Source: Octopus vulgaris
Lineage: Eukaryota
Assembly (NCBI GenBank): GCA_951406725.2
Contig: OX597817.1
Coordinates: forward strand, 52,390,001 to 52,454,000
DNA: 64,000 nt
Direction of reading: 5' to 3'
The notes under the pieces are model-generated. The model worked only from the letters and a program-made list of their open reading frames with translations, had not been told where the DNA came from and made no database searches. The position numbers and the translations under genes were made by a program. Below are positions 282 to 54,088 of this stretch, piece by piece; position 1 is the first letter of the stretch, and every line of letters starts with the position of its first letter.

Positions 282-547
282 GGTGAAATAGACAATATTA
301 CTTGTATGATGATAATGCTCATTTACAACCGCCATATGATGTCTAGATGAAGGTGTGCACATGCACACACGTGCGCGACAAGCTCCTTTTAGGTTTCTGC
401 CTGTCAAGTTCACTCATTAGGCTTTTGGTCAACCCAAGGCTGTAGTAGAAGATATTTCTCTAAGGTGCCTCACAGTGGTACTGAACCTAAGAGCACATGG
501 TTGAGAAGCAGGCTTCTTAACCACACAGCCATGCCTATGACCACACG

Positions 548-1445
548 CAGACAGAGACATGGACAGACAGACAGAGACACGGACAGACAGACAGAGACAC
601 GGACAGACAGACAGAGACACGGACGGACAGACAGACAGAAACACGGACAGACAGACAGAAACACGGACGGACAGACAGAAACACGGACAGACAGACAGAA
701 ACACGGACAGACAGACAGAAACACGGACAGACAGAAACACGGACAGACAGACAGAGACACGGACAGACAGACAGACAGAGACACGGACAGACAGACAGAC
801 AGAGACACGGACAGACAGACAGACAGAGACACGGACAGACAGACAGACAGAGACACGGACAGACAGACAGACAGAGACACGGACAGACAGACAGACAGAG
901 ACACGGACAGACAGACAGACAGAGACACGGACAGACAGACAGACACGGACAGACAGACAGACAGAGACACGACAGACAGACAGACAGAGACACGGACAGA
1001 CACGGACAGACAGAGACACGGACAGGCAGACACGGACAGGCAGACACGGACAGGCAGAGACACGGACAGACAGAGACACGGACAGACAGAGACACGGACA
1101 GACAGAGACACGGACAGACAGAGACACGGACAGACAGAGACACGGACAGACAGAGACACGGACAGACAGAGACACGGACAGGCAGAGACACGGACAGGCA
1201 GAGACACGGACAGGCAGAGACACGGACAGGCAGAGACACAGACAGGCAGAGACACAGACAGACAGAGACACGGACAGACAGAGACACGGACAGACAGAGA
1301 CACAGACAGGCAGAGACACAGACAGACAGAGACACAGACAGACAGAGACACAGACAGGCAGAGACACAGACAGGCAGAGACACAGACAGACAGAGACACT
1401 GGCAGACAGACAGACAGAGACACTGCCAGACAGACAGACAGACAG
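548..1445. repeat. Compound (GACA)n-derived micro/minisatellite (units such as gacacggacagacagacaga)
   Basis: About 900 nt of near-pure tandem units, almost T-free on the + strand; the source of the spurious long ORFs. Confidence 0.97.
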
Positions 1446-1575
1446 AATTTTTCCATTTCTTACGCTATTTTAGTGGTACTTTCCCTTGTTACATTAAATT
1501 TAAACTTTTGTAAATTGATTTTTTTTTTAATCGAAGCATTTTAACTTCAAATTATTTTTTTTATTTCCATGGCAG

Positions 1576-1647
1576 GTTTGCAACATTGTTGGAGGCCAAC
1601 GTTGCATAAAAAAATTAACTGAAATGCAAACATCCACCATGATCAAA
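1576..1647 (+). CDS. AGO2: Argonaute exon a (PAZ end/L2): [24 protein letters not shown]
   Basis: ggcag acceptor, gtaagt donor, 72 nt, phase 0; not in the ORF track. Confidence 0.95.
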
Positions 1648-4600
1648 GTAAGTATTTGTCTGTGGAGACATGTTTATTTTACGTGTGTGACTATGTCCTT
1701 GCTACTCTCTTTTTCACTCATAGTGCATGTATAGACATCAAGAATATCTTACCTTTTATTTGTTTCAATTATAGGGCTGTGGTCATCCTGGGGCACTACT
1801 TTGAAGGGTTTTAGTTAAACAAATCAACCCAGTACTTATTTTTTTATAAATGAGGTGCTTTTTTTTCTAAAGGTCTGTTTTGCCGAACAACTATGGTACG
1901 AGGGATGTAAACAGACCAACACAGGTTGTGATGTAATGGTAGCTGTCCAACAACTCCATCAATATAGCCAGCTGTAGTCAACAGTAGTCCACTCTGCTGG
2001 GCAGTTGGTGTTAGGAAGGGCATCCAGTTGTAAAAATCCTGCAAGGAGTGGTGCAGGAGTGGCTGTGTGGTAAGAAGATTGCTTCCCAACCACATGGTTC
2101 CGGGTTCAGTCCCACTGTGTGGCACCTTGGGCAAGTGTCTTCTACTCTAGCCAACCAAAGCCTTGTGATTGGATTTGGTAGACGGAAACTGAAAGAAACC
2201 CATTGCACACACACCCACACACACATATATATATGTATATACATACACACACACAAACATGGATGTATATGTTTGTGTGTCTGTGTTTGGCCCCTTACCA
2301 TCGCTTGACAACCGATGTTGGTGTGTTTACGTTCCTGTAACTTGGCAGTTCAGCAAAAGACTACTAGAATAAGTACTAGGCTTACAAAGAATAAGTCCCG
2401 GGATCGATTTGTTCGACTAAAGGTGGTGCTCCAGTATGGCTGCAGTCAAATGACTGAAACAAATGAAAGAATAAAAGAATTATAACAGTCACAGAAGTCT
2501 GGTGCAGGCTTCTGTCTGACTGGCTTCTCTCAAACCGTTCCACCCATGCCAGCATGGAAGGCAGACATTAAATGGTGGTGATTTAGCCATCAACAGTTCA
2601 CAAACCTTATCATCATTGTTTAATGTCCATTTTCTATCCAGGCATGGGTTGAACAGTTTAACAGGAGCTAGCAAGGCAGAGGACTGCACCATGTTCCAGT
2701 GTCTGTTTTGGCATGATTTCTATATCTGGCTACCTTTCTTAATGTCAACCACTTTGTAAAGTATACTGGGTGCTTTTTACTTGGCACTGGCCCCAGTGAT
2801 GTCACCAATTAACTCATGAAACAAAACCCCTCAGTTGAGTTAGGGGGGGGGAATAAGCATTGAGGGAGATGGCTTTACGTCAGGTAATGAAAGGCTAAAG
2901 TATGATAGAGATACAGGGACAGGTGTGTTGCTGTAAGGGAGATTACATGGTTATTCCAGTTGGAAAGGGGCAAAGATGGTAATAAAGACATTGCAGGGCA
3001 TACCCTCATCTCTCTATCTCTCTATATATATAAACGGCAAAATGTCTGTCTGTGTGTGTGTCCTTTATACAAATCCACAATTTTTAAGTTAGAGGGTTCG
3101 CACTTTCTATGGTCATTCAAAACCGTCCAAGGGTGGTTGTGCATATCTTTACATTTCCCCGGTCACCCTACAAAGCCATTAAAAAATCAATACAAGTGAC
3201 TTTTTTTGTGAATTTTCTATTCAAAACCCAATCAAAATGCCCGAAACCTGATACTCCAATTGAATGCCAGCTAGCTGTATGTGATTGGTCGGTGATTTGG
3301 ACAGTACTTGAGTGTATGTGCGCACGCACATATGCAGCTGTATATGCATGCACTAGCACTATGACCCGGCAACGCCGGGTCATAGTGCTATGAAGTGCTG
3401 TGCTGTGGGACTGAACCCAGAACAATATGGTTTGGAAGCAAGCTTCATACTACCCTACCACACACACATGCATTGATTCTACATCTGTTAAACATAGTGC
3501 TAGTATTACATGAAGAAGAATATAAGAGGATTGATACAGAGGTGAATGGACTGGGTGAATGGGTAGCAATTTTTAGACAATTATCTAAGAGGGACACCCT
3601 TTCCAGTTTTGCTTGTCAGTTGACTGATTTTCTCTTATTAATTTCAGGAAACCGCTCGGTCAGCACCAAACCGAGAACGGGACATCAACAGTTTGGTATG
3701 TAATTATTTTTCTTTTCTCTTTTCCTTTTCTGTTATTTGTTTGTTTCAGTCGTGGAGTTGTGGCTATGCTGGAATCTCACTTGATGGGTTTAGACAATCA
3801 AGTTGATTTTGGTACTTTTTGTAAGTCTGGTACTTTTGTACCAGACAATGGGACCACAAATACATACACATTGAGGCACACATGCATATATAGGCAGGCA
3901 CACATGCATATATAAAGCAGGCACACATACATATGTATACACACACACCCATCACCATCACCATCATCATCTTCATCATTTTCTTCATCATCTTCTTCAT
4001 CATCTTCTTCATCATCTTCTTCATCATCTTCTTCCATCTTCTTCTTTTTCATCATTATCTTCTTCTCCTTCTTCATCTTGATGTCCACTTTTCCATGCTA
4101 GCATGGATTAGACAATTTGTTGAGGCAGATTTTCTACGTCTGGATGCTCTTCCTGTTCACAACACTCACCTGTTTCCAATGAACGTAATATTTCCCCATG
4201 GCCAGACATGTTTTCATAGAATACAATACTGAAAATGAGTGACACTCATTTACAAGAACCACACAATGGGAAGACAAACAGACCCCCCCACCTCCCCCAC
4301 ATATGATGGTCTTCTTTCAGTTTCCATTTTCAAAATACACTTAGATGACTTTGGTTGGCCTGGTGCTATGAAGTGCTGTGCTGTGGGACTGAACCCAGAA
4401 CAATATGGTTTGGAAGCAAGCTTCATACTACCCTACCACACACACATGCATTGATTCTACATCTGTTAAACATGGTCTAATGGTAAAACATCAGTCATGT
4501 TTACAGAAATTATGGGTTCAAGTCCCATGAGCAGCCTTTGACTTTTCCATCTGAGGGATTTTTCAACCTGATATTTACATGTATTTATTTATAGCTTTAT

Positions 4601-5749: not shown

Positions 5750-8700
5750 AACCAAAATATACACATTGCTAAATGGCAAAAGAAAGTATTCACATGTCAC
5801 TTAGTAACAACAAGAGAATAGTTGGAACCCAAGGCCCGCCATGCTAGATCGTCAGCCACTACACACATTCTCTCCTTGTTTTTTCTGTGTCCCTTTCTGT
5901 AGAAGAGCGTAGGCTCGAAACGTAAAAGACTTTTTCTATTCCTGAGCATTATACTAATACATCTGTTTGTTTTGTACACCACCTGTCTTTGTCTTTTGTT
6001 TTTTTTTCGTAAACTTTCCCTATATATATATATACGACAGGCTTCTTTCAGTTTCCATCTACCAAATCCACTCACAAGGCTTTGGTCGGCCCGAGACTGG
6101 AGTAGAAGACACTTGCTCAAGGTGCCACGCAGTGAGACTGAACCCGGAACCATGTAGTTCATAAGCAAGCTACTTACCACACAGCCACTCACGGTCCCAC
6201 TAGAAACCTTTGACCTTTTTATCTCAAAGGGTTTTTCAACTTCACATTTACATGCTGTTATTTGCAACTTTACATGTACTTCCAGAACCAATTCCATGTT
6301 CTCTCAAAAGTTTATAAATTCCTGACATCAGTAATAAAATGTTCTTCTTTCCTTACTCCAGGTGTCTAAAGCAAACTTCAGTGAAGATCCCTATTTGCAG
6401 CAATTTGGTGTTCAGGTCAATCCAAAGATGGTAGAGGTTGAAGGGCGTGTTATAGATGCACCCAAAATCCAATATGGTGGACGGGTAAGTTGCAGCTCAT
6501 TATTATTATTATTATTATTATTGAGTGAGAGAGCAGTGCCTGCCATCAAAGTGACACTGGGGTAAAATATACGAAGCCCAGTATACCCATCATGACTACC
6601 TGTCTGATAAGGGTACACCAGGCACATGCATCACAACCATATGTGCATGACATGGTGATCTGATATCAAGATAAACAGTGCATGACCTTGCAGGTGGGGC
6701 CCAGTTAGAATTTTCATCAAGTCGAGTAGCCCATCCCACTCAGAGGTCCCTGAATAAGGGTTGTTTCAGGATGTTGAATGAAACACCCATTTTTCCAGAA
6801 GTGAATTATTCAAACCCCAAAGAATCCCTCTCGACACATGGCTATGATGCTCTCCCATTACTTCTGCTCGTGATCAGAGATGCACATATCGTCAGCCACC
6901 AAGGGACATGCTCAACTGGTTATGGTCAAACAACTGACAAGCAAATCTGTGGTATTGAGCAGAATATTTGCTGTAGCCCATCTTTTATATCAAGACAAAA
7001 CAATGTACATGATAACACTTCCAATCAGTTGAGGTGAGAAGCCATGAGATCCACTGCCTGGTGGGCATTATTATTATTATTCTTATTCTTACTGCATCTA
7101 TCAACTGAGAAAGTGAACATATTATACTCTTTCCCCATTACTGATTTTTACCTATATTTATTTTTCCAATTTGTTAAATTAAAGAAGTAATAAAAATAAA
7201 AAAGATTTTTTTTTCATTATGACTCCTATGGCTCACAAGTCTGGTGCTTATTTTGGGTACCTGTAGCATTTAAACAGATGAGACCAATCTCCACTTGGAT
7301 AATGCACCAGTCCATTTTGGGTGACTTATCCACCTGCAGGTGGAATTGAACACAGCTCTGCTAGCTGATGAAACACTCCTCAGTTTTATGGTACTCCTGC
7401 TGCTTGTAGTTGTGAATTATAGTTCACTATTGTGTCCATTTGCAATTTGTGTATTTCTGATCTTGGAAGATAAATGCCTTATTCATAGATACAATGCTGT
7501 GCTAACGGCTGGATATGTTTGGTACAATATTGAATGATTGGTACTGTATTGACTGGTTGAAATTCCTTATTTCCAAGCAATTCTTGGTGGAAATTTTGGG
7601 AACCAGTTCCTGTTTTGACAAACAGTACTATATACCTCTTACATGTTTGAGGGCAGGATGAAAAACATTGACTGTAGAAGTATTTGAACTTGTAACCTTA
7701 TATATTTGATTCCATCATCTCACCTGCACAGCCACTGTACCATTCCTGACTTCATATTCATAATTTATTAATTTTTTTTTTTTGTAGTCGTTTTAAAAAA
7801 ATATTTATTTCACCTATTTTGCTATAACCTGGTTTCAGACGAAAGCATTAGCAGTTCCAAACCAAGGTGTGTGGGATATGCGTGCCAAACAGTTTTACAA
7901 TGGGATAGAGATCAGAGTGTGGGCTATTGCTTGTTTTGCTGCCCAAAAAAACGTCAAAGAAGAAGCCCTCAGGTAATTCTCTTTGTTTGTTGTTGAGGTT
8001 GCTGTTTGGGGCCTTAATAGTGATTTATTTATTTATTTTATTTTAATGAGATAAAGAAAAGTTTCCATGTCCTATCACCCTCCACAAGTGTGATGGTATC
8101 ATATCTGAATTAACTTCTATGCTGGTTGCTCACATCTATTTCCACAATTATAAATAGCAGACTTTGGTCTGGTTGTCTTTTAATTCTTCAGCATTCAGGT
8201 TATTCTGCCAAATGTAATGCCTATTTATTCATATTGCTTTGAATTATGCATTATCTCGTAGCTTTGAGATTTTGAAGATATGATTGTATATATTTAAACT
8301 GAAAAGGCAGTGAGCTGGCAGAAACGTTAGCATGCCGGGCGAAATGCGTAGCCGTATTTCGTCTGCTGTTATGTTCTGAGTGTAAATTCAGCTGAGGTCG
8401 ACTTTGCCTTTCATCCTTTTGGGGTCGATAAATTAAGTACCAGTTATGCACTGGGGTCGATGTAATTGACTTAATCCCTTTGTTTGTCCTTGTTTGTCCC
8501 CTCTGTGTTTAGCCCCTTGTGGGTAGTAAAGAAATAGGTATTTCGTCTGCCGCTATGTTCTGAGTTCAAATTCCGCCGAGGTCGACTTTGCCTGTCATCC
8601 TTTCGGGGTTGATTAAATAAGTACCAGTTATGCACTGGGGTCGATATAATCGACTTAATCTGTTTGTCCTGTCTATGTTTAGTCCCTTGTGGGTAGTAAA

Positions 8701-11533
8701 GAAATAGGTATTTCATCTATCTTTGTTGTGAGTTCAAATTCCGCCGAGGTCGACTTTGCTTTTCATCCTTTTGGGGTTAGTAAATTAAGTACCAGTTGCA
8801 TACTGGGGTTGATCTAAATGACTGGTGCCCCTTCCCCCAAAATTTCAGACCTTGTGCCTAGAGTAGAAAAGAATACTTTTAAAGGCAGCGAACTGGCAGA
8901 AACATTAGCACGCTGGGCAAAATGCATAGCAGTATTTCATCTTTTTACATTGTGAATTCAAATTCCGCCGAAGTTGACTTTGCTTTTCGTCCTTTTAGTG
9001 TCGATAGATTATGTACTAGTTGCATACTGGGGTTGATCTAATTGACTGGCCCCTTACCCCAAAATTTCAGGTCTTGTGCCTAGAGAAGAAAAGAATATTA
9101 TTATTAAGGTGACAAATTGGTAGAATTATTACTGCACCAGGCAAAATGCTTAGCAATGTTGCATTTGGTTCTTTAGATTCTGAGTTCTAATGTTGCCAAT
9201 GATGACTTTGCCATTCATCCTTTTGGGGTTGATAAAATAAGTACCTGTTGAACTCTGGAGCGGGTAGTATAATCTTCCCTCAAAATTATTGACCTTGTGC
9301 CAAAATTAGAAAGTGTAATTAATAATATTAACGTATTGTGTGTACGTGTAAGCAAATGCATGTCTTTTTGGGTTTATTTTAGCCATCATAAACTAAGGCC
9401 ATGCTGGAGCACAGCTTTCATTGTGTGACGTCCATTATGAGCTTTTGCATTTAAAAGAATTGTGGGTAGAGGAATGGGAGAGTGGAGACCAAAACGAAAT
9501 TCTGTATAAATTTGTCATTGTTAAAAGTGAACTAAATTTGATTTTCACAGGAGTTTTACACAACAACTACAGCGTATTTCAAACGATGCTGGCATGCCAA
9601 TCAGTGGCCAGCCCTGCTTCTGTAAATATGCCAGCATTCCTGAGCATGTGGACCCAATGTTTACATATTTGAAGAATAAGTTCCAAGGACTACAACTGAT
9701 AGTTGTCATACTGCCAGGAAAAACACCAGTTTATGGTAGGTTGATAGCATTTCTTCTTTTCGTTGATTTGTGTTAGATGACTGTCGTAGTGATTTTCAGG
9801 GATTTGTGTTGTTTGTAAGAAGGGTGAAGTACTTGATAACTTCTTTGATTTATTTGGTGATTGTGTCTTTATACTGTTAAAAGAGAAACCACGTTGCTAT
9901 GTCCTCATAAAAGAAAAGTATGAGAGAAAGTTACCATTGAAGAAGACTGCATTGAAAATGACAAAAGCTTATCAGTTTACACAAATTGTTTTTGATTTCA
10001 GCTGAAGTGAAGCGTGTTGGTGATATCACATTTGGTCTTGCTACTCAATGTGTCCAGGCCAGGAATGTTACACGTACATCTCCACAAACTCTCTCCAATT
10101 TATGTCTGAAGATAAATGTCAAACTAGGTGGCATCAACAGCATCTTACTTCCAAGTATTCGGTAAGTTCCATTTGTTACATTGCAGTGAATCTGTTTAGA
10201 GCGGGATCTCTTGTAAGCCGCTAAGCTCTCAACCAGTGGTGGCTGTCTTTATGTAATGATCTTAATGAGGGATAAACTTTGGTTCACCAGTCATCACATC
10301 ATCGTCATCGTTTAACGTCCGCTTTCCATGCTAGCATGGGTTGGACAGTTTGACTGAGGGCTGGCGAACCATATGGCTGCACCAGGCTCCAGTCTCGATC
10401 TGGAAGAGTTTCTACAGCTAGATGCCCTTCCTAACGCCAACCACTCCAAGAGTGAAGTGGGTGTTTTTTACATGCCACCGGCACGGGGGCCTGTCAGGCG
10501 GTACTGGCAATGACCTCGTTTGAATCTTTTTACACACGCCACCGGTACAGGTGCCAGAAAGGCGATGTTGGTAACGATCACGCTCGAATGGTGCCTTTTA
10601 CATGTCACCGGCATGGAAGCCGGTTAGCCGCTCTGTCAACAATCACGCTTGTATGGTGCTCTTTGCACCCCTCTAGCATGGGTGCCCGTCATCAAATTTC
10701 ACATGTATCCTAATCATAATTTGGGTTTCAATATTAGCCTGGTTGACCGTGAGGATTAGGGTACTCTGGCTTGAATCTTGGAGCAACTTTCCACTGCTTT
10801 TTCATAAGCACCATCATTTAACATTTTCCCCCACACTGGCATGCATTGGATGATGTAACAGGAACTGGTGAACGAGGGGAGTGCATCAAGCTTCAGTGTT
10901 TGCTTTGGCAGGGTTCCTGTGGTTGGATATCCTTCCTAGCATCAACAACTTTACAGCGTGTGCAGGGTACTTTTTACATGACACCAGCCCCAGTGAGGTC
11001 TCTAATTGTCAAGGCAATTCTCCTCTACTGAGGTGAGATGTAGTGTTGAGTAAGGTGGCTTTATGCTGGGTGATGAAATATTATGCCTTACTTCCCTGGG
11101 CATGGATACATTGAAATTCCGATGTCTGGCAGCTGACTTGGCAGACACCCATAAAATTATTAACCATCTTACAAACGATAACTCTGAGCACCTTTTCAAA
11201 CTCCACCGGTCTAACACCTGTGGACATGTTTACAAAGTCAGAAAACAGCACAGCTCCCGTGCCTTTTGGAAACATTTTTTCACGCTAAGAGTTGCTGAAG
11301 TATGGAACAAACTGCCAGCATCAGTTGTTAGTTGTCGGAGCACTGCATCATTCAAAACTTCCATGCTTCCTGAGATTCGCCAACACTACACCTGATTTTC
11401 TCCCCTCCATACACATACAAGCATGTATCTGACTCATACACTATTCACTTTCCAGACATTTGTACATTACTGCATATGCTTTATATGCACTTTTGACAAG
11501 TTGTGGTGCACCTGAGCACTGTATACAATAATT

Positions 11534-14711: not shown

Positions 14712-17700
14712 ACACACACATACATACACACACATACATACACACACATACATACATACACACATACATACATACATACATATACATACATACATATACA
14801 TACATACATACATACACACACACACATACTCACACACACAGTATTGAAGCTTGAGAACAATCAGATACATTTGCAACACATCTGTTGAAAATATTATTGT
14901 TCACACACATACATATACATATATACATACAGACAGACAGACACATAGACACACACACACACACATGATCCAGCATGGCCACAACCTCAAGGCTGAAACA
15001 TATAAAAGAATAACAGAATATAAATGTGTGCAAAGTACAAGAAATATTAATGCAGTATATGGGGATTGGACAATAAGCGTAAGGCAGTGTCAATGGTGGT
15101 TCCAGAAATCCCGAGCCATAAACTACAGCCTAGAAGACGAGCCTCATCCTGAAAGATCTGTAGAACTCGACAAGGACATCCTGAAAACCCTGGTGGAACA
15201 AAATCTCATCGTAACTGTTGAGGAACTAGCAGAGAAGCTTGGATTTGGTCATTCAACCATTCATTGAGACCTGTGTGCTATCGGAAAAGTCAGCAAATTG
15301 GGTCAATGGGTTCCTCACGAACTTTCCAAGTCTAATTGCATGCAGAGAGTGAATGTATGCTTTTCTTTGCTGTCACATCTCACCACTACTGCGCTATGTA
15401 TATCTATATATATAAAACTGTAGTTGTGTGAGTGTCTGTCCCCTTCGATTTAGATTCCTAACTACTCCCACATTTTGCGGTGCAGTTTAACCAAATTCGG
15501 GTAGCTTATAGTCGTGATTCATATCGAGCCCGTCTGAATATTAGCGCGCGTCTACGATGAGTCTACGATTTTAAAAATAATTTAACATCATTTTTTATTC
15601 CATTTTAATGCATAATTTTTCGTGTGTCTATGGCGGCGGAGTTGGCGTCCACGCTCACACCTGCACCTGTGGGGAAGGGAGTGTAAGGAAATCAACGTCG
15701 TAATGCGTTGTCAAGGAGACCAGTGTTCTTTTAGAACAACGACTTCATGGCTTGAAGACACCAAAACAGAAATGGCTAAGAAAGCGTCTACATGAGTCTA
15801 CGATTTAAAAAAAAATTTACCATCGTTTTTTTTCCATTTTAATGCATTTTTTCGCTATTATATAAGGGAAGTAACTCTCTAAAAATGTCTACGATGAGTC
15901 AACGATTTAAAAAAAAATTTACCATCATATTTTTTTCCATTTTTAATGCATTTTTTGCTATTTTTTTGCTATAACTCTCTAAAAATGCTTATATAGTTAT
16001 TTCCCTTACAAACCCGAGCAACGCCGGGCGATACTGCTAGTATATATATAATAACTACCACTATGACCCGGCAACGCCGGGTCATGGTGCTAGTGCATGC
16101 ATATTTAGCTGCGTGCGTGCGCACATACACACAAGTACTGTCCAAATCTCCGACCAATCACATACAGCTAGCTGGCATTCAATTGACGTATCAAGTTTCG
16201 GGCATTTCGATTGGGTTTTGGATAGAAGATTCACAAAAAAGTCACTTCTATTGATTTTTTAATGGCTTTGTGGTGTGACTGGGGAAATGTAAAGATGTGC
16301 ACGACCACCCTTGGACGGTTTTGAATGACCATAGAAAGTGCGAGCCCTCTAACTGAAAAATTGTGGATTTGTATAAAGGACACACACGCAGACATTTTGC
16401 CGTTTATATATTTAGAGATAATATAAGGGAATATTATTCCAAACTTACAGGGAAAAATTCACTTTAGAAATACTACGTTTTATTTATTATTTTGCATATT
16501 ACCTAATCATCGTTATGTTTTATCTTATATTTAATCTTTCTATAATATGTAATTTTCTAGATGGTCTAATTTAATTTTTCATTATTGAATTGATAAAAGG
16601 TGTTTTTTTCTAATTAATATATATATATATATATATCTCTTATTATAAAAGGCAGATTTTATCTGCCTCCCTTTGTCACTTATAGAAATCTACAATATAG
16701 GATTTCTTCAATTACAATTTACCTAGCATTTTTAAGAGTAGAATGCATCGGGTCATGCCAGGTCCAGTTTTTAAAATTTAAACTCCAATTAAGCAAAATT
16801 TACAGAAAACTCACATTCTGGTGTGTATGTCAAATGCTTTTCTTAGTCTGGTTTACAGCACACGCAAACGCACACACACAGTGTGCAACGAATAAAGTGA
16901 AACTAATTCACTGTGTGTGTGTTGACAGGTAGACAATAGAATGCGATGGCGATGTAATATTTGTTTCTGTCTATCACGCTGATAGATACATGAGTAAAAT
17001 GTATGGCAAGCTAAGAGATAAGAGTGAGTGAAAATGTTCTTGGAAGAGAGTAAATAGCGACAGTGATTTGAGGAAGACTAAACTGAAAGTATGAAACAGT
17101 GTTTATGTATAAACAGACGACACTTATATATAGTTATTAATAAATGTATGCATCCGTTTAACCCTTTCGTTACCAAACCGCCCGAATTTACCTATTCATA
17201 TTTAAATGAGAATATCAGAGTAAATCTCTTTAGTACATTCGTGAAAACACGTATTATACTTCGTAAACACTTCAAATACAGTTTTGTACAAAAATCGAAG
17301 TGTAATTTTAATTCCGTGAATTATGGGAGATTTTTTTCCGAAATTTGTTCCTATTGTGTTTTCAAAATTTGTAATTCTGACAAAAAATGGATACGAATTT
17401 CATTATATCAAGCAGCGAGTCAGAATTCGAAGGATTTTCTACTGAAGACCTTCATAAATCTAACTCTATGACTGAAAAAAAAAAGCATCTTTATATAAGA
17501 GTGAAGTTGTGTGTCTGTCTCCTACGATTTAGATTCGTAACTACTCCCACATTTTGCGGTGCAGTTTAACCAAAAGCGGGTATCTTATAGTCGTGATTCA
17601 TATCGAGCCCTTCTGGGTATTAGCGCGCGTCTACGATCAGTCTACGATTTAAAAAAAATTTACCATCATATTTTTCCATTTTAATGCATTTTTTTCGCTT

Positions 17701-17915: not shown

Positions 17916-20900
17916 TATACATACACTGTATTCCCTCGACATATCGCGGTTTATTATCTGAGCTTACGTTGATTCCTCTGTGGTGTTGTTTTGCATTTAT
18001 AATAAAATAAATATATACAAATTATAAAAAATAAAAATATACAGTACCATTTCCAGTTTGTTGATTTTCACCTATGGCGGGGGCTTTTGGAATGTGACTT
18101 CCGCGATAGTCGAGGGATTACTGTACTGTATATTCATGTTCTCTTTGATTGATTTTTTTTTTCCCTTTAGAAAAGATGTCTTCTCATCTGACCATTTTTG
18201 TTCTGTTTTCCATTCTCTTTCATTGGTAGGCCTGCTATATTCCGAGAACCCGTCATATTTATTGGTGCAGATGTCACTCACCCACCTGCAGGAGATGCTA
18301 GTAAACCTTCAATTGCTGCTGTAAATACATCATCTTTTTCTTGTGTGTGTGTGTGTTTGTATTGTCACTGGAGGTTGTTTGTGCTGTTGTTGTGCTAGGG
18401 TACTACCTTGAAGGGTTTTAGTCGAACCATGTGGTTCATTAGCAAGCTATTTACCACACTGCCAAGGTCATTTTTTGTTAGATGTACTATTTGGAAAAGT
18501 TCCTTGGGCCACAGTTTGCTCATGACTGTCTTATACAATCATCATCATCATCATTGTTTAACATCCCTTTACTATGCTGGCATGGGTGGATGGTTTGACT
18601 GAGGACTGGCAAGCCAGAAGGCTGCACCAGGCTCCAATCTGATCTGGCAAAGTTTCTACAGCTGGATGCCCTTCCTAACACCAAACACTGAGTGTGTCGT
18701 GGGTGCCACTGATACAGGAGTCAGTCAGGTGGGCCTGGCATTGACCACGTTCAGATGATGCCTTTTATGTGCCACTGGCATGGGAGCCAGTCAGGGGGCA
18801 TTCACATCGACCATGTTCAAATAGTGCTTTGGTTTTCCATGCTGGGATGGGTAGGATGGCTTGATGGGAACTTGCAAAGCCAGGAGCTGCACCAGGTTCC
18901 ATTGTCAGTTTTGGCTTGGTTTCTACAACTGGATGCCCTTACTAATGCCAACCATTCTACAAAGTGTACCGAGTGCTTTTTACTTGGCACCAGCCCCTTT
19001 GCCGATGCTTTTTCATGTGGCACCTTGGTTTTAGGATATCAATTCTGTTGTGGTGGGCAGGTCTTCTTGAGTACAACAAAGCTCTGCATATCTCTGTCCT
19101 CTGTCATCTCTTTTGTAAGGTTCAGCATTTTGAGATTGGCCTTCAATTCTTCATCTCATCTCTTCCTGGGTTTCCCTCTTCCACAGCTCCCCTCCACTTT
19201 AAGGGATCAGTTCTTGCTCCAAAAATTAATATCTCATTTTGAAGTTACTATTCTTTTCTCCGTGTATATATCATCATAGTTTTTGTATTTGGATGTTGTG
19301 ATTTTTCCAGGTTGTTGGCAGCATGGATGGCCACCCAAGTCGATATTCTGCTTCTGTTCGGGTCCAAGAACATCGCAAAGAAATCATTCAAGAACTTGCC
19401 ATCATGGTCAAGGAGCTTCTGATGGAATTTTACAAGTGTACTATGTTTAAACCAGCTCGAATTGTCTTCTATAGAAATGGTGTCAGTGAAGGACAGTTTC
19501 AGCAGGTAAATGGCTTTGTTGTTAATGTTAATTACAGGTGAAAAGCCATGTGAGTAAGGTGTCAGACATCTTTATGTTGGGAGCTATTGCTAGTTGATTC
19601 ATGAGTCTTGGTAGCAGAAGTCATCCTCATTTTTCATCATCGTCATTTACTGCCCCTTTTCTATGCTTGCATGGGTCAGATGAAGTTTCTTGAGGCAGAT
19701 TTTCTGTAGCTGGATGCTCTTCCTGTCACCAACCTTCACCTGTTTCCAAACAAGGTAATATTTCCCCATGGCCAGACATGGTTTTTTTTTTTATGGAAGA
19801 CTAGAAGTGAAGAACCTTGCTCATTTATGACATGTTTAGATAAGGGTACATACATACACCATTTTTTTCAGTTTCCATCTACCAAATCCACTTACAAAGC
19901 CATGATGGCCTGGAGTTATTGTAGAAGACACATGCCCATAGTGCTGCACAATGGGACTGAACCTGAAACCATGCAGTTGGGAAACCAGCTGCATAACTGC
20001 ACAGTCAATTGAATCATAAATTATCTCGCTGCTTCTTTTCCTTCTTCTCCTCTCATTCCTTCTGCTTTACTTTTTTTTTCCATTCTCATCACCTTCTATT
20101 TCTTTACTATCCACAAGGGGCTAAACACAGAGAGGACAAACAAGGATAGACAAACGGATTAAGTCAATTATATCGACCCAGTGCGTAACTGGTACTTATT
20201 TAATCGACCCTGAAAGGATGAAAGGCAAAGTCGACCTCGGCGGAATTTGAACTCAGAACGTAAAGACAGACGAAATACCGCTAAGCATTTTGCCTGGCAT
20301 GCTAACGGTTCTGCCAGCTCACCGCCTTAAGCTCATCACCTTGCTCTCCCTCTCTCCTATTTGTTTTCCTGTCTCATTATGACAGATTGTGTTCATTTAA
20401 CTTGTTCTGTAAACACAAGCTAGCGAAACCTTGTTCTCTATAAAGTGTCTATGCAGATTACCTCAGTGTCTCCACAAGGTTCCTATTGATCATTAGGTGC
20501 TCTCTGCCATCAACACTTTGGTAATTGTTGCCACACACATAAATTCAATGCTGTCTGCATTATGCAACAGGAAACAAGCTATTGATTTTCTTTTATTTAG
20601 TTAGCATACTGACACCGTATAAATTAGGACAGCTGTTGATGTATTGCACAGTACTGACATGTTTCCATAAATATATATGAGTGGGAAGCTGAAAAGTTTC
20701 TGGCTCTAAGGGCATTGTGAAAGGCCTGGTTGGAGGACCAACCTTCCAAGTTCTTTTACAGGGCTTAGAAGATCTAAAGGACTGCTGCAATAAGTGTGTG
20801 AATCTGAGAAGGGAATATGTTAAAATGAAATCATAATTAACTGATTCTCCTGTATTTTCTTTTACTGAAATTCAAGAACTCTTCAGCACCTCCTCATATA

Positions 20901-21111: not shown

Positions 21112-23271
21112 TTTATACAAATCCACAATTTTCAGTTAGAGGGCTCACACTTTCTATGGTCATTCAAAACTGTCCAAGGGTGGTCGTGCACATCTTTACA
21201 TTTCCCCAGTCACCCCACAAATCCATTAAAAAATCAATAGAAGTGACTTTTTTGTGAATCTTCTATCCAAAACCCAATCGAAATGCCCGAAACTTGATAC
21301 ACCAATTGAATGCCAGCTAGCTGTATGTGATTGGTTGGAGATATGGACAGTACTTGCATGTATGTGTGCACTCTCACAGCTGTATATGCAAGCACTAGCA
21401 CTATGACCCGGTGTAGCCGGGTCATAATGCTAGTATATATTAAGTGATTGTATACATTATGGATACATACAAACACATGCATACACGTTCTTTTGTTTCT
21501 TATCTAGGTACTAAGTTATGAGTTGAGAGCTGTGCGGCAAGCCTGTATTGACCTTGATTTAGCCTACCAACCTGGAATCACCTTCATAGTAGTACAGAAA
21601 AGACATCATACCAGACTATTCTGTGCGAATGAACAAGATCAAGTGAGTATTTTTAGTATTTCACTATAAACTTAGATATGTTTTGACCAAAGATTGGTCC
21701 AGGCCATGTCTAACTTAAAAGCATCACCAGACAAGTAGTGAGTTCTTGTTGAGTGAGTTGTATCCAGGTATGGGTGGCTTACCCGTTATTCCTTGAAGAA
21801 ATCTGTCTAGAGTCTGTTTAAAGGTGATGGGATCCTTTTCCTCTTTGATCTCCCCTTTTTTCTGTCCTTGTCTGTCTGTCTGTCTCACTGATTTTCCTTT
21901 TCTTGTCTATCTGTGTCTCTCCCTTATTTCTTTATTGCCCACAAGGGGCTAAATGTAGAGGGGACAAACAAGGACAGATAAAGTGATTAAGTCGATTATA
22001 TCAACCCCAGTGCGTAACTGGTACTTAATTTATCGACCCCGAAAAGATGAAAGGCAAATTCGACCCCGGCGGAATTTGAGCTCAGAACGTAATGGCAGAC
22101 GAAATACCGCTCAGCATTTCGCCCGGTGTGCTAACGTTTCTGCCAGCTCACCGCCGTCTGTGTCTCATCCTATCTCTCTTTATCTCTTGTATTTATTTTT
22201 AATTCTTTAGGTTGGTCGAAGTGGGAATATCCCAGCTGGAACCACTGTGGATCATGGTATCTGCCATCCAACAGAATTTGATTTTTACCTCTGCAGTCAC
22301 ACTGGCATACAGGTAAGTAGCAGTTGATTATTTTCATTGTTGGTCATTGTTTTTCTTTTAATAACACCGTACCCAGTGTAAGCTATGGACGCATGCAGCA
22401 ACATCAAAGGAAAATTAACCGAGAAGATAGCTTTCTTGTGCGGCAGATGCACAGGGGCAGTAGACGCACAGGGGGAGAAACTAGAAATAGTTGATAGTTT
22501 CCGCTACCTAGGTGACCAAGTTAGTAGTGGAGGTGGATGCTCAAAGAATGTCACCACTAGGATACAATAGAACTTTGTGAGGAATCTGGAAGGTCGGTAA
22601 GAGGCGGTCCTCTCCTGCATTGAAAGCCAGGATTGGCCTCCGCGGGTGACTGTGGTAGTCATGGTGGAAAATGATTTCTACAGGGTGATGGATTCCTTTA
22701 TCAAGGATGAATACAATTATTTCTTATGGGACCCCTGCTTGCGACTGCAGGCTTGCCTGCAGGCGGCAAGAGACTTAATTGGGAAGGTAGAGTAAAAGGT
22801 TTTAGTGTCTCGATTTGAACTTGGTGATTTTGGTAAGAGGTTTAGCGCCTCAATTTGAAAGAACAATTGAATATATTTGCTGAACTTTTGTGAGATTTAA
22901 TTGGTAAGAGGCTCAGCACCTCAATTTGTAACTGTTGTAAGAGGTTCAACACCTCATTAGTTTTGTTTAAAAAAAAAGAACAATGTTATCGGGAAGTAAC
23001 AATTGGCGGGCACTGGCTGCTTCCCCCACCAACCATCTCTTTTTTCATTCCATCATCATGATTGTGTCTGTGTCCAGCCCGCAAGCTTCCTTCTGTATTA
23101 TGCCTTTATGGCAAATGTAATGAAATAAAGAAACTTACTTCTCATGGTTCTGGGTTCAGATGGTTCTGAGTTCAGTCTCACAGCGTGGCACCTTGGGCAA
23201 GTGTCTTCTACTATAGCTTTGGATTGACCAAAATCTTGTGAGTAGATTTGATAAATGGAAACTGAAAAAAG

Positions 23272-23311
<40 letters not shown>

Positions 23312-24827
23312 GTGTAAAATGTCTGTGCCTGTCTCCCACCACCCCTTGCCATCTGGTGTTGGTGTGTTTATGTCTCAATAGAATAAGTACTGCTCTTGAA
23401 ATAAAATGAGTTTAACCCTCATTTGACTAAAAATTCTTCAAGGCAGTGCCACAGCATGGCTGCAGTCTACTGACTGAAACAAGTTAAAGGTAAACGATAG
23501 CTGCACATCAGATTTAGTAGCTCCAAAGAGCAGGATTTTGTGATATTACATACGTATATAAATGCATACATAATTCTTGTAATTATGGTTTCCCCTTTTT
23601 CTCTCATTCTTTGCAGGGAACCAGTCGGCCTTCACATTATCATGTTCTCTGGGATGACAACCGGTTTAGTGCAGATGAACTTCAGACGTTGACCTATCAG
23701 CTTTGCCATACATATGCAAGATGCACGCGGAGTGTGTCTATACCAGCACCAGCTTACTATGCCCACCTAGTTGCTTTCAGAGCTCGTTACCACCTGGTTG
23801 AGAAAGACCACGACAGGTAAAGATAACATCCCTGTTCTGACATTTATTTTCTTGTGCTTGTTCTCTTTTTTTCCTATACTTCATTTGTAGGGTTTACTTT
23901 TTGGCATATGGTCCCTTCATACTTTTTTCTAGCTAGGCACATCACCAGTGCTGGATTAACCATTAAGCAAAATAAGCATGTTCTTAGTGCATCAGAGGAA
24001 ATGGAGCACCATGGAAATGGTAAATGGTTTATGGCACAAAAGAAATCACTTTAAATTTGCTAAAATAATATTTAGGATGCCCTTATCTCAACTAGTATAG
24101 AAGCAGGTGTGTTACATAAGATTAATTTTGAGGATCTGATCAAAGACTTTGCAATGAAAAATAAAAAGTAGGAAACTTTACAAATATAAATAAGGTGGAA
24201 GTTTACAGAAACAAACAATATTTTCTATCTTATGGTTTTGTTTCATATTGAAAAGTAAAAATTTTATGGTTTGAATTACATATCTATAGGGGAGCCAAAA
24301 TCTTTTAAGTTCTGGGTTCACTCCTGCTGTGTGGCACCTCAGTCAAGTGCCTATTACTATGGCCTCAGGCTAACAAAAGCCTTGTGAGTGGATTTGGTAG
24401 AAGGAAACTGAAAGAAGCCCATCATATATATGTGTGGGTTTGTCTCCCCACACCATTGTTTGACAACCAATGTTGGTGTGTTCACGTCCCTGTAACTTAG
24501 CAGCTTGGCAAAAGAGACTGATAAAATAAGTATTAGGCTTACAAAGAATGTTCTGGGAGCGACTTGTTCGACTAAAGGCGGTGCTCCAGCATGGCCGTAG
24601 TCAAATGACCGAAACACGTAAATGACCGAAACACGTAAATGAATTAAAATGAAAAAAAAAAACTGTAGTATTGTACATGTGTTAGAAAAGAAAATTTTAT
24701 TTTGTTTCTCTTTTGTAGCGGCGAGGGTAGCCACCAGTCAACTTCACAGGAAGAGCGGACCCCAACTTCCATGTCGAATGAGATTGCCGTGCACCCTGAC
24801 ACCATCAAGGTCATGTACTTTGCTTAA
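1576..24827 (+). CDS. AGO2: Argonaute (miRNA-class AGO clade, argonaute-2-like), 5'-truncated in window; join(1576..1647,3648..3695,6362..6484,7839..7972,9551..9735,10002..10161,18230..18320,19311..19505,21508..21642,22211..22312,23617..23816,24719..24827)
   Basis: Twelve GT-AG-bounded exons splice in phase to 1554 nt (517 aa plus TAA), colinear with human AGO2 343-859. Hallmark motifs: [84 protein letters not shown]-terminal MYFA. The symbol marks family similarity, not proven one-to-one orthology. Confidence 0.97.
2053..2480 (+). mobile_element. CORE-type tRNA-derived SINE, family B (similar to octopus OR-type SINEs)
   Basis: A-box-like tggctgtgtggtaag, B-box-like ggttcagtcc, CORE-like gtggcaccttgggcaagtgtctt and an internal microsatellite; many other copies in the window. 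Confidence 0.8.
3017..3504 (+). mobile_element. Non-autonomous Helitron-like element (family H2) with a templated insertion at its 3' end
   Basis: 5' TC...tatatataaacggcaaaatg, perfect 17-bp terminal hairpin at 3354-3390, CTAG-T terminus at 3500-3504; homologous to 16055-16418 and 21033-21433. Confidence 0.75.
3648..3695 (+). CDS. AGO2: Argonaute exon b (L2): [16 protein letters not shown]
   Basis: tttcag acceptor, gtatgt donor, 48 nt; matches the ATARSAPDR motif. Confidence 0.92.
3950..4078. repeat. (CAT)n/(CTT)n compound microsatellite
   Basis: Direct inspection. Confidence 0.9.
4653..4965 (+). mobile_element. tRNA-headed SINE (distinct family)
   Basis: tggcccagtggttagggcagc A-box, ggtttcgatttcc B-box, AAT-rich tail. 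Confidence 0.65.
5135..5399 (-). mobile_element. tRNA-headed SINE, same family as 26839-27177
   Basis: Reverse complement begins gaaggtgcacggctcagtggttagaacatcggg and shares gtgttgtgttcttgag and the gaagggggtct 3' end. Confidence 0.7.
5510..6190 (-). mobile_element. Family B SINE interrupted by (TA)n and a Penelope-like terminal fragment (about 5748-6025, + strand)
   Basis: SINE 3' part at about 5510-5690 and 5' part at about 6030-6190; the insert carries a hammerhead-like core ctgtagaagagcgtaggctcgaaac. Confidence 0.7.
6362..6484 (+). CDS. AGO2: Argonaute exon c (L2): [41 protein letters not shown]
   Basis: ccag acceptor, gtaagt donor, 123 nt. Confidence 0.95.
6499..7080 (-). mobile_element. 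About 550-bp interspersed retroposon flanked by (TTA)n; further copies at 27540-27887 (opposite orientation, partial) and 62829-63388
   Basis: Near-identical gcagtgcatgccatcaaagtgacactggggt...gatcagagatgcac... sequence at three loci; orientation inferred from the microsatellite tail. Confidence 0.75.
7839..7972 (+). CDS. AGO2: Argonaute exon d (L2/MID): [44 protein letters not shown](R)
   Basis: tttcag acceptor, gtaatt donor, 134 nt. Confidence 0.95.
8305..9320 (+). mobile_element. Tandem cluster of about 5 family A SINEs
   Basis: Repeated ggcagtgagctggcagaaacgttagc...gagttcaaattccgccgaggtcgactttgcctttcatcc units. Confidence 0.85.
9551..9735 (+). CDS. AGO2: Argonaute exon e (MID): [16 protein letters not shown]...[15 protein letters not shown]
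   Basis: cacag acceptor, gtaggt donor, 185 nt; contains the PGKTP nucleotide-specificity loop and the Y529 equivalent. Confidence 0.96.
10002..10161 (+). CDS. AGO2: Argonaute exon f (MID): [53 protein letters not shown](R)
   Basis: tttcag acceptor, gtaagt donor, 160 nt; 5'-phosphate-binding K533, Q545, K566 and K570 equivalents intact. Confidence 0.96.
10298..10690 (-). mobile_element. SINE/LINE 3'-tail family C with (GAT)n tail; other copies at about 18540-19030, 32676-33005, 48730-49085 (-) and 58755-59050 (+)
   Basis: Shared catcgtttaacgtccgctttccatgctagcatgggttggac...ctacagctggatgcccttcctaac sequence. Confidence 0.75.
11075..11566 (+). mobile_element. 5'-truncated CR1/L2-group LINE 3' end
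   Basis: ORF remnant [18 protein letters not shown]...TCGHVYKV...[15 protein letters not shown] typical of a CR1 ORF2 C-terminus, followed by a 3' UTR and (TTA)n tail. Confidence 0.85.
11902..12135 (+). mobile_element. Family A SINE, full-length-like
   Basis: Same head, core and aaagaaata tail as the 8305 cluster. Confidence 0.85.
12690..12955. repeat. About 105-bp tandem triplication
   Basis: ataagacagtaaggtgtgatttgagggagatttggctgct recurs at about 12692, 12798 and 12902. Confidence 0.85.
13324..13580. repeat. Long foldback inverted repeat (arms about 117 nt, loop 21 nt)
   Basis: 13324-13440 is the near-perfect reverse complement of 13462-13580. Confidence 0.92.
13759..14590 (+). mobile_element. 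Non-autonomous Helitron H1 (13759-14153) followed directly by the 5' part of a second Helitron-like unit
   Basis: 5' TC, subterminal cccgagcaacgccggg hairpin, CTAG-T end; the next unit starts tctcttattataaaaggcag, identical to 16636. Confidence 0.8.
15019..15385 (+). mobile_element. Mariner transposase N-terminal relic
   Basis: [19 protein letters not shown]....YSLEDEP...[15 protein letters not shown], a stop, then [15 protein letters not shown] (mariner WVPHEL motif). Confidence 0.85.
15403..16040 (+). mobile_element. Non-autonomous Helitron H1 (longer variant)
   Basis: TC start, body shared with the 13759 copy, hairpin and CTAG-T end. Confidence 0.8.
16055..16418 (-). mobile_element. Helitron-like H2 copy, inverted
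   Basis: Reverse complement of the 3017 and 21033 copies, including the terminal hairpin. Confidence 0.8.
16636..17883 (+). mobile_element. Composite Helitron: alternative 5' unit, a piggyBac-like left end (about 17158-17480) and an H1 unit (17488-17883)
   Basis: TC start; internal TTAA-CCCTTTCGTTACC; second TC start at 17488; hairpin and CTAG-T at 17880-17884. Confidence 0.7.
17926..18123. mobile_element. pogo/Tigger-like MITE
   Basis: Termini ctgtattccctcgacatatcgcgg and ccgcgatagtcgagggattactg-TA are inverted repeats. Confidence 0.7.
18230..18320 (+). CDS. AGO2: Argonaute exon g (PIWI): [30 protein letters not shown]
   Basis: tag acceptor, gtaaat donor, 91 nt; catalytic D597 equivalent is GAT at 18270-18272. 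Confidence 0.96.
19311..19505 (+). CDS. AGO2: Argonaute exon h (PIWI): [12 protein letters not shown]...RKEII...[15 protein letters not shown]
   Basis: ttccag acceptor, gtaaat donor, 195 nt; E637 equivalent GAA at 19380-19382; D669 equivalent is AAT (Asn) at 19476-19478. Confidence 0.96.
20094..20328 (-). mobile_element. Family A SINE, inverted
   Basis: Reverse complement of 11902-12135. Confidence 0.85.
20677..20897. mobile_element. Mariner-derived MITE
   Basis: TA-tgagtgggaagctgaaaagtt ... aactcttcagcacctcctca-TA imperfect TIRs. Confidence 0.6.
21033..21433 (+). mobile_element. Helitron-like H2 copy
   Basis: TC start, shared body, degenerate hairpin and CTAG-T end 74 nt before exon i. 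Confidence 0.8.
21508..21642 (+). CDS. AGO2: Argonaute exon i (PIWI): [45 protein letters not shown]
   Basis: tctag acceptor, gtgagt donor, 135 nt. Confidence 0.96.
21925..22155 (-). mobile_element. Family A SINE, inverted
   Basis: Reverse complement of the family A consensus. Confidence 0.85.
22211..22312 (+). CDS. AGO2: Argonaute exon j (PIWI): [34 protein letters not shown]
   Basis: tttag acceptor, gtaagt donor, 102 nt. Confidence 0.96.
22370..22570 (+). mobile_element. RTE-clade LINE internal fragment
   Basis: CSNIKGKL...FLCGRCTGA...[21 protein letters not shown]. Confidence 0.7.
23617..23816 (+). CDS. AGO2: Argonaute exon k (PIWI): [15 protein letters not shown]...[22 protein letters not shown](S)
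   Basis: ttgcag acceptor, gtaaag donor, 200 nt; catalytic H807 equivalent is CAC at 23764-23766. Confidence 0.97.
24719..24827 (+). CDS. AGO2: Argonaute terminal coding exon: [35 protein letters not shown]
   Basis: ttgtag acceptor, 109 nt to TAA; canonical MYFA terminus and Ser/Thr-rich loop. Confidence 0.95.
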
Positions 24828-42531: not shown

Positions 42532-44101
42532 CACTGGTGTGCAAAAGTCTTAGGCAGTTCATAGTTTCTTTATTTTAACCAATATTGAAATGACAAAATA
42601 ATTTACAAATAACTTCAGAAATGCAAATTAGTATTTAATAGTTACAGAAAATTCAAAATTCCCTTGGCAAAACATGAATTTTATTTTAAAGCTAATAATA
42701 TGTATGTTTGCCTTTATTCTTTAAAACAGCCTGGATTCTTTTCAGAATGCTGTTTTGCAATTTTTGCACATAATCTTGTGGAATATTGTTCCAAGCATCA
42801 TAGATTACTGTCCACAGTTCTTTTGATTTTGGCTGTTTTTCACTTTTTCTGTGATCTAAATAATCCCATAATAATTCAATGATGTTCGTGTCAGGATTTG
42901 GGGGGAGCCGTTCCATGAGTTCGATTTATTTCCTTTGTAAATAATTTCTTACTACATTTGCTGTGTGCTTGGGGTCATTATCTTGCTGAAAAGTGAACCG
43001 ATTCCTTATGAGCCCCTTTCCAGAGAAGATAGTATAATGAATTAGAATCTGCCTAAATTTTTCAGCATTCATATTTCCCTCAATTCGGACCAAATCTCCA
43101 ATTTCGTTGGTTGACAAGCAGCCCCAAACATTTGTGGAACCTTCACCATGCTTAAGGGTTGGTCTTAGGCAGATTTCCTTCAAATGTTCTCCATTCCTGC
43201 GCCTTTCATATTGCCTTTGTTTGGTACTAGAAATTTCAAATTTAGACTCATTAGTCCAAAGTACATTTTTCCATTAGTGAGGTGTCCAGTTTTTTGTTCT
43301 CTAGCAAATATGAGTCTCTGAGCCTTCTTGCTTTTCCTAAGTAATGCTTTAGCTCTTGCTACTCTCCCATGAAGTTTATTTTTGATGAGGGTTCTTACTG
43401 TTGAAGGATGAAATTGTGTACCTGAAGTTTGAGCTAGATCTTGGGAGAATTCTTTGCTAGAGTTGTGCCTATCCCTAAGGGATGATAGCCTTAAATATCT
43501 GCAGTCACTTTTTGAGAGTTTGGAAAGTCTTCCAGTTCTTGGTTTGTCTGCAACATCTCCAGTTTCTTTATTCTTCATTATAATCTGTTGAATTGCACAT
43601 AGAGATACCCCAGTTCTTCTTGAAATTTCTGCCTGAGAATTACCTTGCTCATAAAGAAATGTCACCTTATGTCTATTTTCTTGTGAAATTTTAGGCATTT
43701 TAAGAATATTATTCAGAAATTACTGAAATATCTAAAAAAAAAAAAACATCAAAATATTAGTAAAGTTACAAATGCATTTAATCTAAAGATATGAACATGA
43801 AAATAGTGATTGCTTTTTGGCATAAAGATGTTTAAAACTGATGTTAAAATGTTTTCATGCTGTTTTATTATATCATTTAAGTGATTTTAATGAAATGAAA
43901 CAATGTTTTAATTGGTTCATAATTTGGTTCAAGTTTTAACAAATACTGGAAACTAACTTTTTTTTTTTTCAGAAATTCTGGGAATTTTTAATGAATGTTG
44001 AAATTAGTAAAATATTTAAAAAATGGATATTTTAGCATTAAGTTCCAATTATCAAATTTCAAAGAAAAGATGGAACTGCCTAAGACTTTTTCACATCAGT
44101 G
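42532..44101 (-). mobile_element. Full-length Tc1-like DNA transposon with a frameshifted transposase (43698-42692)
   Basis: 29-bp TIRs cactggtgtgcaaaagtcttaggcagttc / gaactgcctaagactttttcacatcagtg-TA (2 mismatches); HTH with RTGR, KHGEGS..VWGC, FQQDNDPKHTA, PDTNIIE. Confidence 0.92.
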
Positions 44102-52765: not shown

Positions 52766-54088
52766 TACTCTATCTTTTTGACTATAATTGGTAAAGTAAA
52801 AACCACATCATCATGGAATACATAAAACTTCAAAATGAAGAGATTTTCTTTTTGTATGGCACTGTCAACTGTAGCCTACGTTTACAGAACTGCCTTTAGA
52901 TATCTATCTATCTATCCGCTCAGTTGAAGTCGACTCTCGGTTACTCGTTGGATCAGTGTCCTCCAGTAAGTTCTATCCTGGGCCGCTTCTTTCAGATTGG
53001 CTATGTCCATTCTGATATCACTCTTGATGGTATCAAGCCAGGTGGGTTCTTGGTCGGCCTCTTCCTCTCTTGCCACTGACCATTCCGAGCATGATGTCCT
53101 TCTCCAGGGATTTTCTCCGCATAATATCATCGAAAACATGCACTTTATATGGAAAGAATTTAAGTTGATGCACTGCTCGGTGAGTTGATGTTAGAGATAT
53201 CCTAGTTTCTTGAGACAAACGCCTCAAAGACTTTCGTGGGCTCCTCTGCAGTTTGTTGGTAACATTCTGTAAGACTGTATCTGTAACGACTTTTGGGCGG
53301 CCACTTTTGGGTTTGTCTTGAACACTTCCAGTTTTTTTGAACTTATGCAACAAAGCGGAAACACAATTTCGATGCGGCAAACGTTCTGCACCAAATTTTT
53401 CTTGAAATGACTCTTGCACTTCTTTTGTGTATTTGCCACCATCTCGGAAAACATTTTCAACAATAAATATCCTTTCTTGTAAGGTAAGCACCATTTTCAA
53501 AGGGTCCCTGAAACAAAAGAATATTTAATATAAATATCTAAAATTTAGATATCTAAATTATCTAAATATAATATTTAAAATCTTTTGGGAAAACATTTTC
53601 AACTATAAATATCCTTTCTTGTGTTCAGTGCACTGTTTCTTTATGTATATATTCTTTCAAGTTAAACTACAAGAGCCAGAGATTGTCTTTCCACATTCCT
53701 TACATCAGAATGGTTTCTTTACTCTATCTTTTTGACTATAATTGGTAAAGTAAAAACCACATCATCATGGAATACATAAAACTTCAAAATGAAGAGATTT
53801 TCTTTTTGTATGGCACTGTCAACTGTAGCCTACGTTTACAGAACTGCCTTTAGATATCTATCTATCTATCCGCTCAGTTGAAGTCGACTCTCGGTTACTC
53901 GTTGGATCAGTGTCCTCCAGTAAGTTCTATCCTGGGCCGCTTCTTTCAGATTGGCTATGTCCATTCTGATATCACTCTTGATGGTATCAAGCCAGTGGGT
54001 TCTTGGTCGGCCTCTTCCTCTCTTGCCACTGACCATTCCGAGCATGATGTCCTTCTCCAGGGATTTTCTCCGCATAATATCATCGAAA
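52692..54088. repeat. About 443-bp direct duplication (52692-53135 and 53646-54088) flanking a transposase fragment
   Basis: The two copies are near-identical apart from a 1-nt indel. Confidence 0.9.
53136..53510 (-). mobile_element. Tc1/mariner (rosa/maT-like) transposase N-terminal HTH fragment
   Basis: MVLTLQERIFIVE...FQEKF...PHRNCV..L.HKFKKTGSVQDKPKSGRPK...RSPRKSLRRLS. Confidence 0.8.

Follow-up and report, generated by a model that had tools for sequence, protein, structure and literature searches.

One of two Argonaute (AGO) genes in Octopus vulgaris encodes asparagine at the third position of the catalytic tetrad of its PIWI domain. The gene is most probably one half of a duplication older than the octopod-decapod split, in which the asparagine makes this copy a permanently non-slicing microRNA Argonaute, while a sister gene on contig C24 keeps the catalytic aspartate. 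The C-terminal part of the Asn copy lies in the window, the whole stretch of 64,000 nucleotides that was analysed (contig OX597817.1, here C4). In the mechanism we favour, the C4 protein would bind microRNA guides via its intact MID and PAZ domains and would repress its targets without cutting them; any slicing would be performed by the C24 sister, and the C4 copy would have been freed to diverge. Loss of slicing, microRNA loading and the division of labour between the two octopus copies are what we infer from the evidence laid out below.

Gene Structure and Catalytic Tetrad

The window gene comprises 12 coding exons between positions 1576 and 24827 (Table 1), which join to 517 codons and a stop with no internal stop, and all 11 introns follow the GT-AG rule. 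Its initial ~417 codons are located upstream of the window and spread across at least 16 kb, where residues 17–77 fully match the O. vulgaris record. Once translated, the 517 codons in the window match the C-terminal ends of the proteins known from O. vulgaris, O. sinensis and O. bimaculoides without a mismatch, and there are three differences to the Argonauta hians protein. All six AGO Pfam families were found above cut-off in P0122, in the order N, L1, PAZ, L2, MID and PIWI, with MID and PAZ intact in the C4 protein, while an Rfam search across the window gave no match. A retrocopy or pseudogene was ruled out by the stop-free frame, the GT-AG introns and the intron positions that the gene has in common with its C24 sister. 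An N-terminal exon located ~15.9 kb upstream of the window (G000:C4, L021) encodes a GG(L/M/I)PP pentapeptide repeat, the length of which varies among Octopus records (929 versus 934 residues).

Alignment to human AGO2 is colinear over residues 22–859, every position being shifted by 75, so that D672, E712, N744 and H882 of the octopus protein correspond to D597, E637, D669 and H807. The original prediction, made from the letters of the window, had claimed an intact spliced frame colinear with human AGO2 as well as retention of D597, E637 and H807 next to an AAT codon in place of D669; the frame behaves as described, and the coordinates given for all four codons are correct. Within its in-frame context of 12 residues, the AAT codon on the plus strand changes the PIWI tetrad to D-E-N-H, with F676 and the remaining tetrad residues D, E and H being retained. 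The genome-encoded DED(H/D) tetrad by which we recognise slicer competence is hence absent from the window gene.

Table 1. Coding exons of the Argonaute gene and further features of the window (positions in the window).
Feature	Position	Strand	Remark
Degenerate short tandem repeat, ~1.1 kb	400–1540		Intron before first in-window exon; several frames open
AGO coding exon, PAZ end (P0122 residues 418–441)	1576–1647	+	First in-window exon
AGO coding exon, linker 2 start	3648–3695	+	
AGO coding exon, linker 2	6362–6484	+	
AGO coding exon, MID	7839–7972	+	
AGO coding exon, MID to PIWI start	9551–9735	+	
AGO coding exon, PIWI	10002–10161	+	
Tc1/mariner-type transposase fragment	14848–15267	+	
PIWI exon, D597-equivalent GAT at 18270	18230–18320	+	Exon end is a loose end of spliced RNA contigs
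PIWI exon, E637-equivalent GAA at 19380, Q636K (AAA at 19377), D669N codon	19311–19505	+	
D669-equivalent AAT (Asn)	19476–19478	+	A in 4/4 contigs examined
PIWI exon	21508–21642	+	C24 counterpart holds likely Ser-to-Gly editing site
PIWI exon, A754T at 22301	22211–22312	+	
PIWI exon, H807-equivalent CAC at 23764, V791A at 23716	23617–23816	+	
Final coding exon	24719–24827	+	TAA end
Tc1/mariner-type transposase fragment	42926–43719	-	
LTR retrotransposon remnant	46266–47728	-	Reverse-transcriptase-like sequence; aspartyl protease match below cut-off
Tc1/mariner-type transposase fragment	53033–53524	-	

Asparagine at the D669 Position

Asparagine is rare at this position. Among 313 distinct AGO proteins we found Asp in 293, Asn in nine, Gly in six and Ser in two, three proteins not extending over the site, and all nine Asn proteins belong to a single coleoid clade. 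A further representative search returned 142 new matches, with 122 Asp, nine Gly, two Thr, two Asn and seven unmatched; the two additional Asn matches are P0315, an exon from genomic sequence that belongs to the decapod Asn type, and P0451, a divergent and unrelated AGO. The Ser-bearing proteins, as other natural changes at this position, are a Tubulanus AGO and one more protein (P0213, P0022).

The original prediction had described the AAT codon as one A-to-I edit away from an active DEDH tetrad. This is literally true but uninformative: both Asn codons become Asp codons through a single A>G change, which applies to each of the 19 Asn codons among the 518 codons of the window frame, so that the AAT codon is by itself no evidence for editing. 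It is also conceivable that the Asn protein keeps a weak or conditional cleavage activity without any editing, given that three tetrad residues are intact and that Asn is isosteric with Asp. We consider this very unlikely, as the identical substitution serves as a catalytically dead control in human AGO2, where D669N is described as catalytically inactivated in the accessible part of PMC9154749, and as the octopus protein departs further through V791A and through Q636K, which adjoins the glutamate finger. Asn also occupies the D669 position in PDB chain 5t7b_A, and through this equivalence to human AGO2 D669N the octopus Asn copy likely lacks slicing activity.

Sister Gene and Age of the Duplication

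When the catalytic exon was searched against the genome, one other match was obtained on G000:C24, which is 83% identical and encodes YRDGV with a GAT codon. Intron positions match between the C4 and C24 genes, and the duplication therefore occurred at the DNA level. A Piwi-domain search, in which 25 candidates were scored, led to four loci on C4, C24, C9 and C26. The genes on G000:C9 (~69.91 Mb) and G000:C26 (~35.55 Mb) belong to the PIWI clade by motif appearance, and their first and third tetrad residues are Asp.

The Asn copy is present in the four octopods O. vulgaris, O. sinensis, O. bimaculoides and A. hians as well as in Sepia pharaonis, and in all five of these named species the Asp paralogue is found alongside it; Asn is also seen in three Logan proteins (P0129, P0128, P0004). 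The chance that the codon merely reflects an assembly error or a private SNP is thus practically nil, the occurrence of the same Asn in five species having already refuted it. The DNA runs X1–X3 contain 31/31 sampled words of the stretch, but may themselves be the source of the assembly, and the unspliced contig of X15, filed under another organism code, has both of its listed differences in introns and none at 19476. The comparison of orthologues proposed with the original prediction accordingly identifies the genomic Asn as common to octopods and Sepia, and the simpler alternative that it had named, a constitutively non-slicing paralogue, is strengthened by the intact sister gene in the same genome and in four other coleoids.

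A tree of 59 rows was calculated in a quick IQ-TREE run with midpoint root and SH-aLRT support only, PIWI and siAGO rows being absent. The coleoid clade and the Asn clade each received a support of 100 and the Asp clade one of 98, and the coleoid pair is nested in the lophotrochozoan AGO as sister to other molluscs (SH-aLRT 87). Because the Asn clade and the Asp clade each contain octopods and decapods, both the duplication and the D669N change can be placed before the octopod-decapod split, to which the accessible text of PMC9699675 assigns an age of nearly 300 million years. None of the sequences retrieved was identifiable as Nautilus. A metagenome scan for cephalopod DNA returned 33 loci with a best identity of 76%, none of them belonging to the coleoid AGO clade, and P0004 was the only shorter orthologue fragment among the best 120 matches.

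The best PDB matches of the window protein are human AGO1–4, and both O. bimaculoides copies stand among the molluscan AGO2-like rows of the tree in the supplement of PMC11114477. The two gene copies as such were therefore known already, from public annotation and from this published tree. As molluscs possess microRNA-type AGO only and are devoid of siRNA-type AGO and DICER2 according to the accessible part of PMC11114477, we assign both coleoid copies to the microRNA class. A discussion of the DENH state of a cephalopod AGO was not found in the literature searched outside the subscription journals.

Two further observations concern the decapods. Asn-copy transcripts of decapods (P0129, P0128, P0004, P0315) feature three extra residues directly after the catalytic exon, owing to an alternative splice donor that lies 9 bases further downstream, while the octopus contigs examined use the upstream donor. 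The Asp-type paralogue of Sepia carries E637D, giving the tetrad DDDH (P0006, P0131, P0132, P0136, P0140, P0141); the same change is known from teleost Ago2, where slicing is impaired. The Sepia sister gene may thus not be a strong slicer either, and a complete DEDH tetrad may be missing from the cuttlefish AGO proteins altogether.

RNA Editing at A19476

At the centre of the original prediction stood the idea that ADAR, depending on tissue or temperature, converts AAU to IAU, thereby restoring DEDH and producing a regulated slicer. If this were true, coleoids, whose microRNA expansion is the largest among invertebrates, would use editing to decide between repression and cleavage, and to our knowledge it would be the first recoding that turns on an Argonaute active site. 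In its favour, the ancestral residue is Asp, the A is conserved in octopods and decapods, and D, E and H are retained. As a general feature, conserved coleoid recoding sites are expected to show reduced synonymous divergence in their surroundings. According to the accessible parts of PMC6881472 and PMC8382921, restorative sites exceed other sites both in how frequently they are edited and in editing strength, and the latter also describes conserved coleoid recoding sites as resisting A>G reversion. Suppressed reversion at a conserved A beside intact D, E and H, as seen here, agrees equally well with such a recoding signature and with selection against slicing, and since conserved recoding sites resist reversion as well, the conservation of Asn does not separate a permanent non-slicer from an edited one.

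No sign of such editing came from the RNA data examined. The stretch or part of it is contained in 20 runs, and the contigs of four of them (X10, X14, X18, X15) were examined. X10, X14 and X18, which come from three studies and are guessed to be RNA, each provide one contig over 19311–19508 with A at 19476 and no other letter in the exon; the loose ends of these contigs equal the adjoining exons, which marks them as spliced transcripts and the gene as expressed. Being consensus contigs with a depth of 4.7–10, no tissue label and minority alleles dropped, they exclude majority editing at 19476 in the X10, X14 and X18 samples only. Nine RNA-guess or unlabelled runs (X10–X14, X16–X19) share the same 0.68 of words; X10, X14 and X18 are counted as editing evidence, and the other six are excluded. 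A side observation from these contigs is position 21531 in the next exon, a synonymous site at which X14 has A against a G in the window, X10 and X18. This difference is likely a polymorphism, its direction being wrong for editing in the window genome. The Logan proteins P0129 (22 contigs), P0128 and P0004, which we take to be RNA-derived because introns are spanned on short contigs, have Asn throughout, and an Asp version is absent from their 90% clusters (two and three members, all read).

Folding the exon against its flanking introns in search of an editing-complementary sequence had been suggested together with the prediction, and no such sequence was found. A19476 is predicted to reside in a 7-nt hairpin loop with a pairing probability of 0.14 and z-scores from -0.33 to +1.89, none of them favourable. 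The best duplex with a flanking intron reaches -30.2 kcal/mol, and among 60 control A sites 23% do as well or better. When the exon with 60 added bases was searched for inverted matches in the first 26 kb, the longest measured 11 bases (E 1.5). On the level of prediction, double-stranded RNA at A19476 was thus not detected, with no intron complement above controls. The A-A-T context with A as 5' neighbour is non-discriminating. A search for AGO gave no match in the supplements of PMC8382921 and in the files searched of those of PMC9699675.

That coleoid AGO transcripts are edited at all is documented by two validated edits in squid 'AGO2' (PMC4384741 supplement), at position 399 in 42278/177855 reads (24%) and at position 439 in 162785/173778 reads (94%). 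The squid genomic primer runs into VLSHE, the form of the Asp paralogue, in place of the VLSYE of the Asn copy, and the third base of GAA and the first base of AGT in the C24 exon are exactly 40 bases apart. Both squid edits therefore probably map to the Asp paralogue, in the exon after the catalytic one. The Logan protein P0140 differs from the genomic P0006 solely by a Ser-to-Gly exchange, P0141 and P0142 retaining Ser (Gly in one of three entries), and several outgroup molluscs have Gly at this position. The corresponding octopus exon at G000:C24 ~37051876–37052013 (L026) likely harbours a strong restorative Ser-to-Gly site (human 697 equivalent), matching the squid site edited at 94%, with a candidate synonymous site 40 bases upstream that matches the one edited at 24%. 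These findings suggest that coleoids do recode AGO, though in the copy whose tetrad is intact, and that a strong edit can become visible in Logan consensus data. In the squid validation table only the sister gene appears, and its amplicon begins just past the catalytic codon, on which it is silent.

Editing at A19476 as a switch to a slicer thus gained no support: all three spliced contigs read A, the three Logan proteins keep Asn although like data caught the Ser-to-Gly exchange of the sister, the site is predicted to be unpaired, the validated squid edits probably fall on the other paralogue, and the intact sister gene lessens the need for such a switch. We hold it to be very unlikely. That A19476 is a conserved neural or cold-dependent site, edited at a minority-to-moderate level and turning the non-slicer into a slicer, appears very unlikely as well.

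Divergence and Retention of the Two Copies

The two copies have evolved at different rates. Between octopus and decapods the Asn copy is 87.0% identical (764/878) versus 98.4% (843/857) for the Asp copy. Coleoid changes were counted in 550 columns that are near-invariant across 28 outgroups; the 38 changes found divide into 10 in both copies, 25 in the Asn copy only and three in the Asp copy only. Inside the window, 16 changes of the octopus Asn copy are located; A>G could undo five of them but not the other 11, Q636K and V791A being among the latter. Judged by sequence comparison, this rate asymmetry is the pattern of a diverging duplicate and not of a gene one edit away from its ancestral state.

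The same asymmetry would be expected if the Asn copy were a relaxed and partly redundant duplicate drifting towards loss, in which Asn is tolerated and not selected, and at 87% octopus-decapod identity one common residue is no proof of selection. Such a drift seems very improbable to us, as the frame and all six Pfam domains are intact, the gene is expressed as spliced RNA and kept in all five named coleoid species found, and O. vulgaris and O. bimaculoides are still 98.9% identical in this copy. A non-slicing Argonaute that is retained next to its catalytically intact sister remains the reading we prefer.

Comparison with Known Systems

The octopus protein, colinear with the DEDH slicer human AGO2, carries as a natural change what was engineered there as the catalytically dead D669N mutant. 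It differs from this mutant in that the change is natural and old and that the slicer role would pass to C24. Vertebrate AGO4 (DEGR) is likewise a lineage-specific duplicate of a microRNA AGO minus one tetrad residue, and the proteins named AGO4 carry Gly where human AGO2 has D669; the tetrad of vertebrate AGO1 is DEDR. The octopus copy differs from AGO4 in its independent origin, in having Asn and not Gly, in keeping His807 and in the absence of an AGO4-type insertion ahead of the glutamate finger.

With coleoid restorative recoding, as outlined in the accessible parts of PMC6881472 and PMC8382921, the octopus site shares the precondition that a codon conserved in the ancestors has changed from G to A in the genome. 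It differs in that editing is unobserved at 19476 in the consensus contigs, the likely restorative site being the Ser-to-Gly position of the sister gene. A molluscan pair resembling the octopus one is described in the accessible part of PMC12506671 for the slug Deroceras laeve, where, of AGO2a and AGO2b, one has an intact tetrad while the other has a point mutation in it and is predicted to be non-cleaving; the slug belongs to the gastropod lineage, and its pair presumably arose by a separate duplication.

The state of both genes matters for the design of RNAi in cephalopods, and more so if the cuttlefish sister with E637D is also weak. Coleoids expanded their microRNA repertoire, as did vertebrates (PMC9699675, accessible part), and they appear to have split their microRNA AGO into a catalytically intact and a tetrad-mutant copy, in parallel to vertebrate AGO2 versus AGO4.
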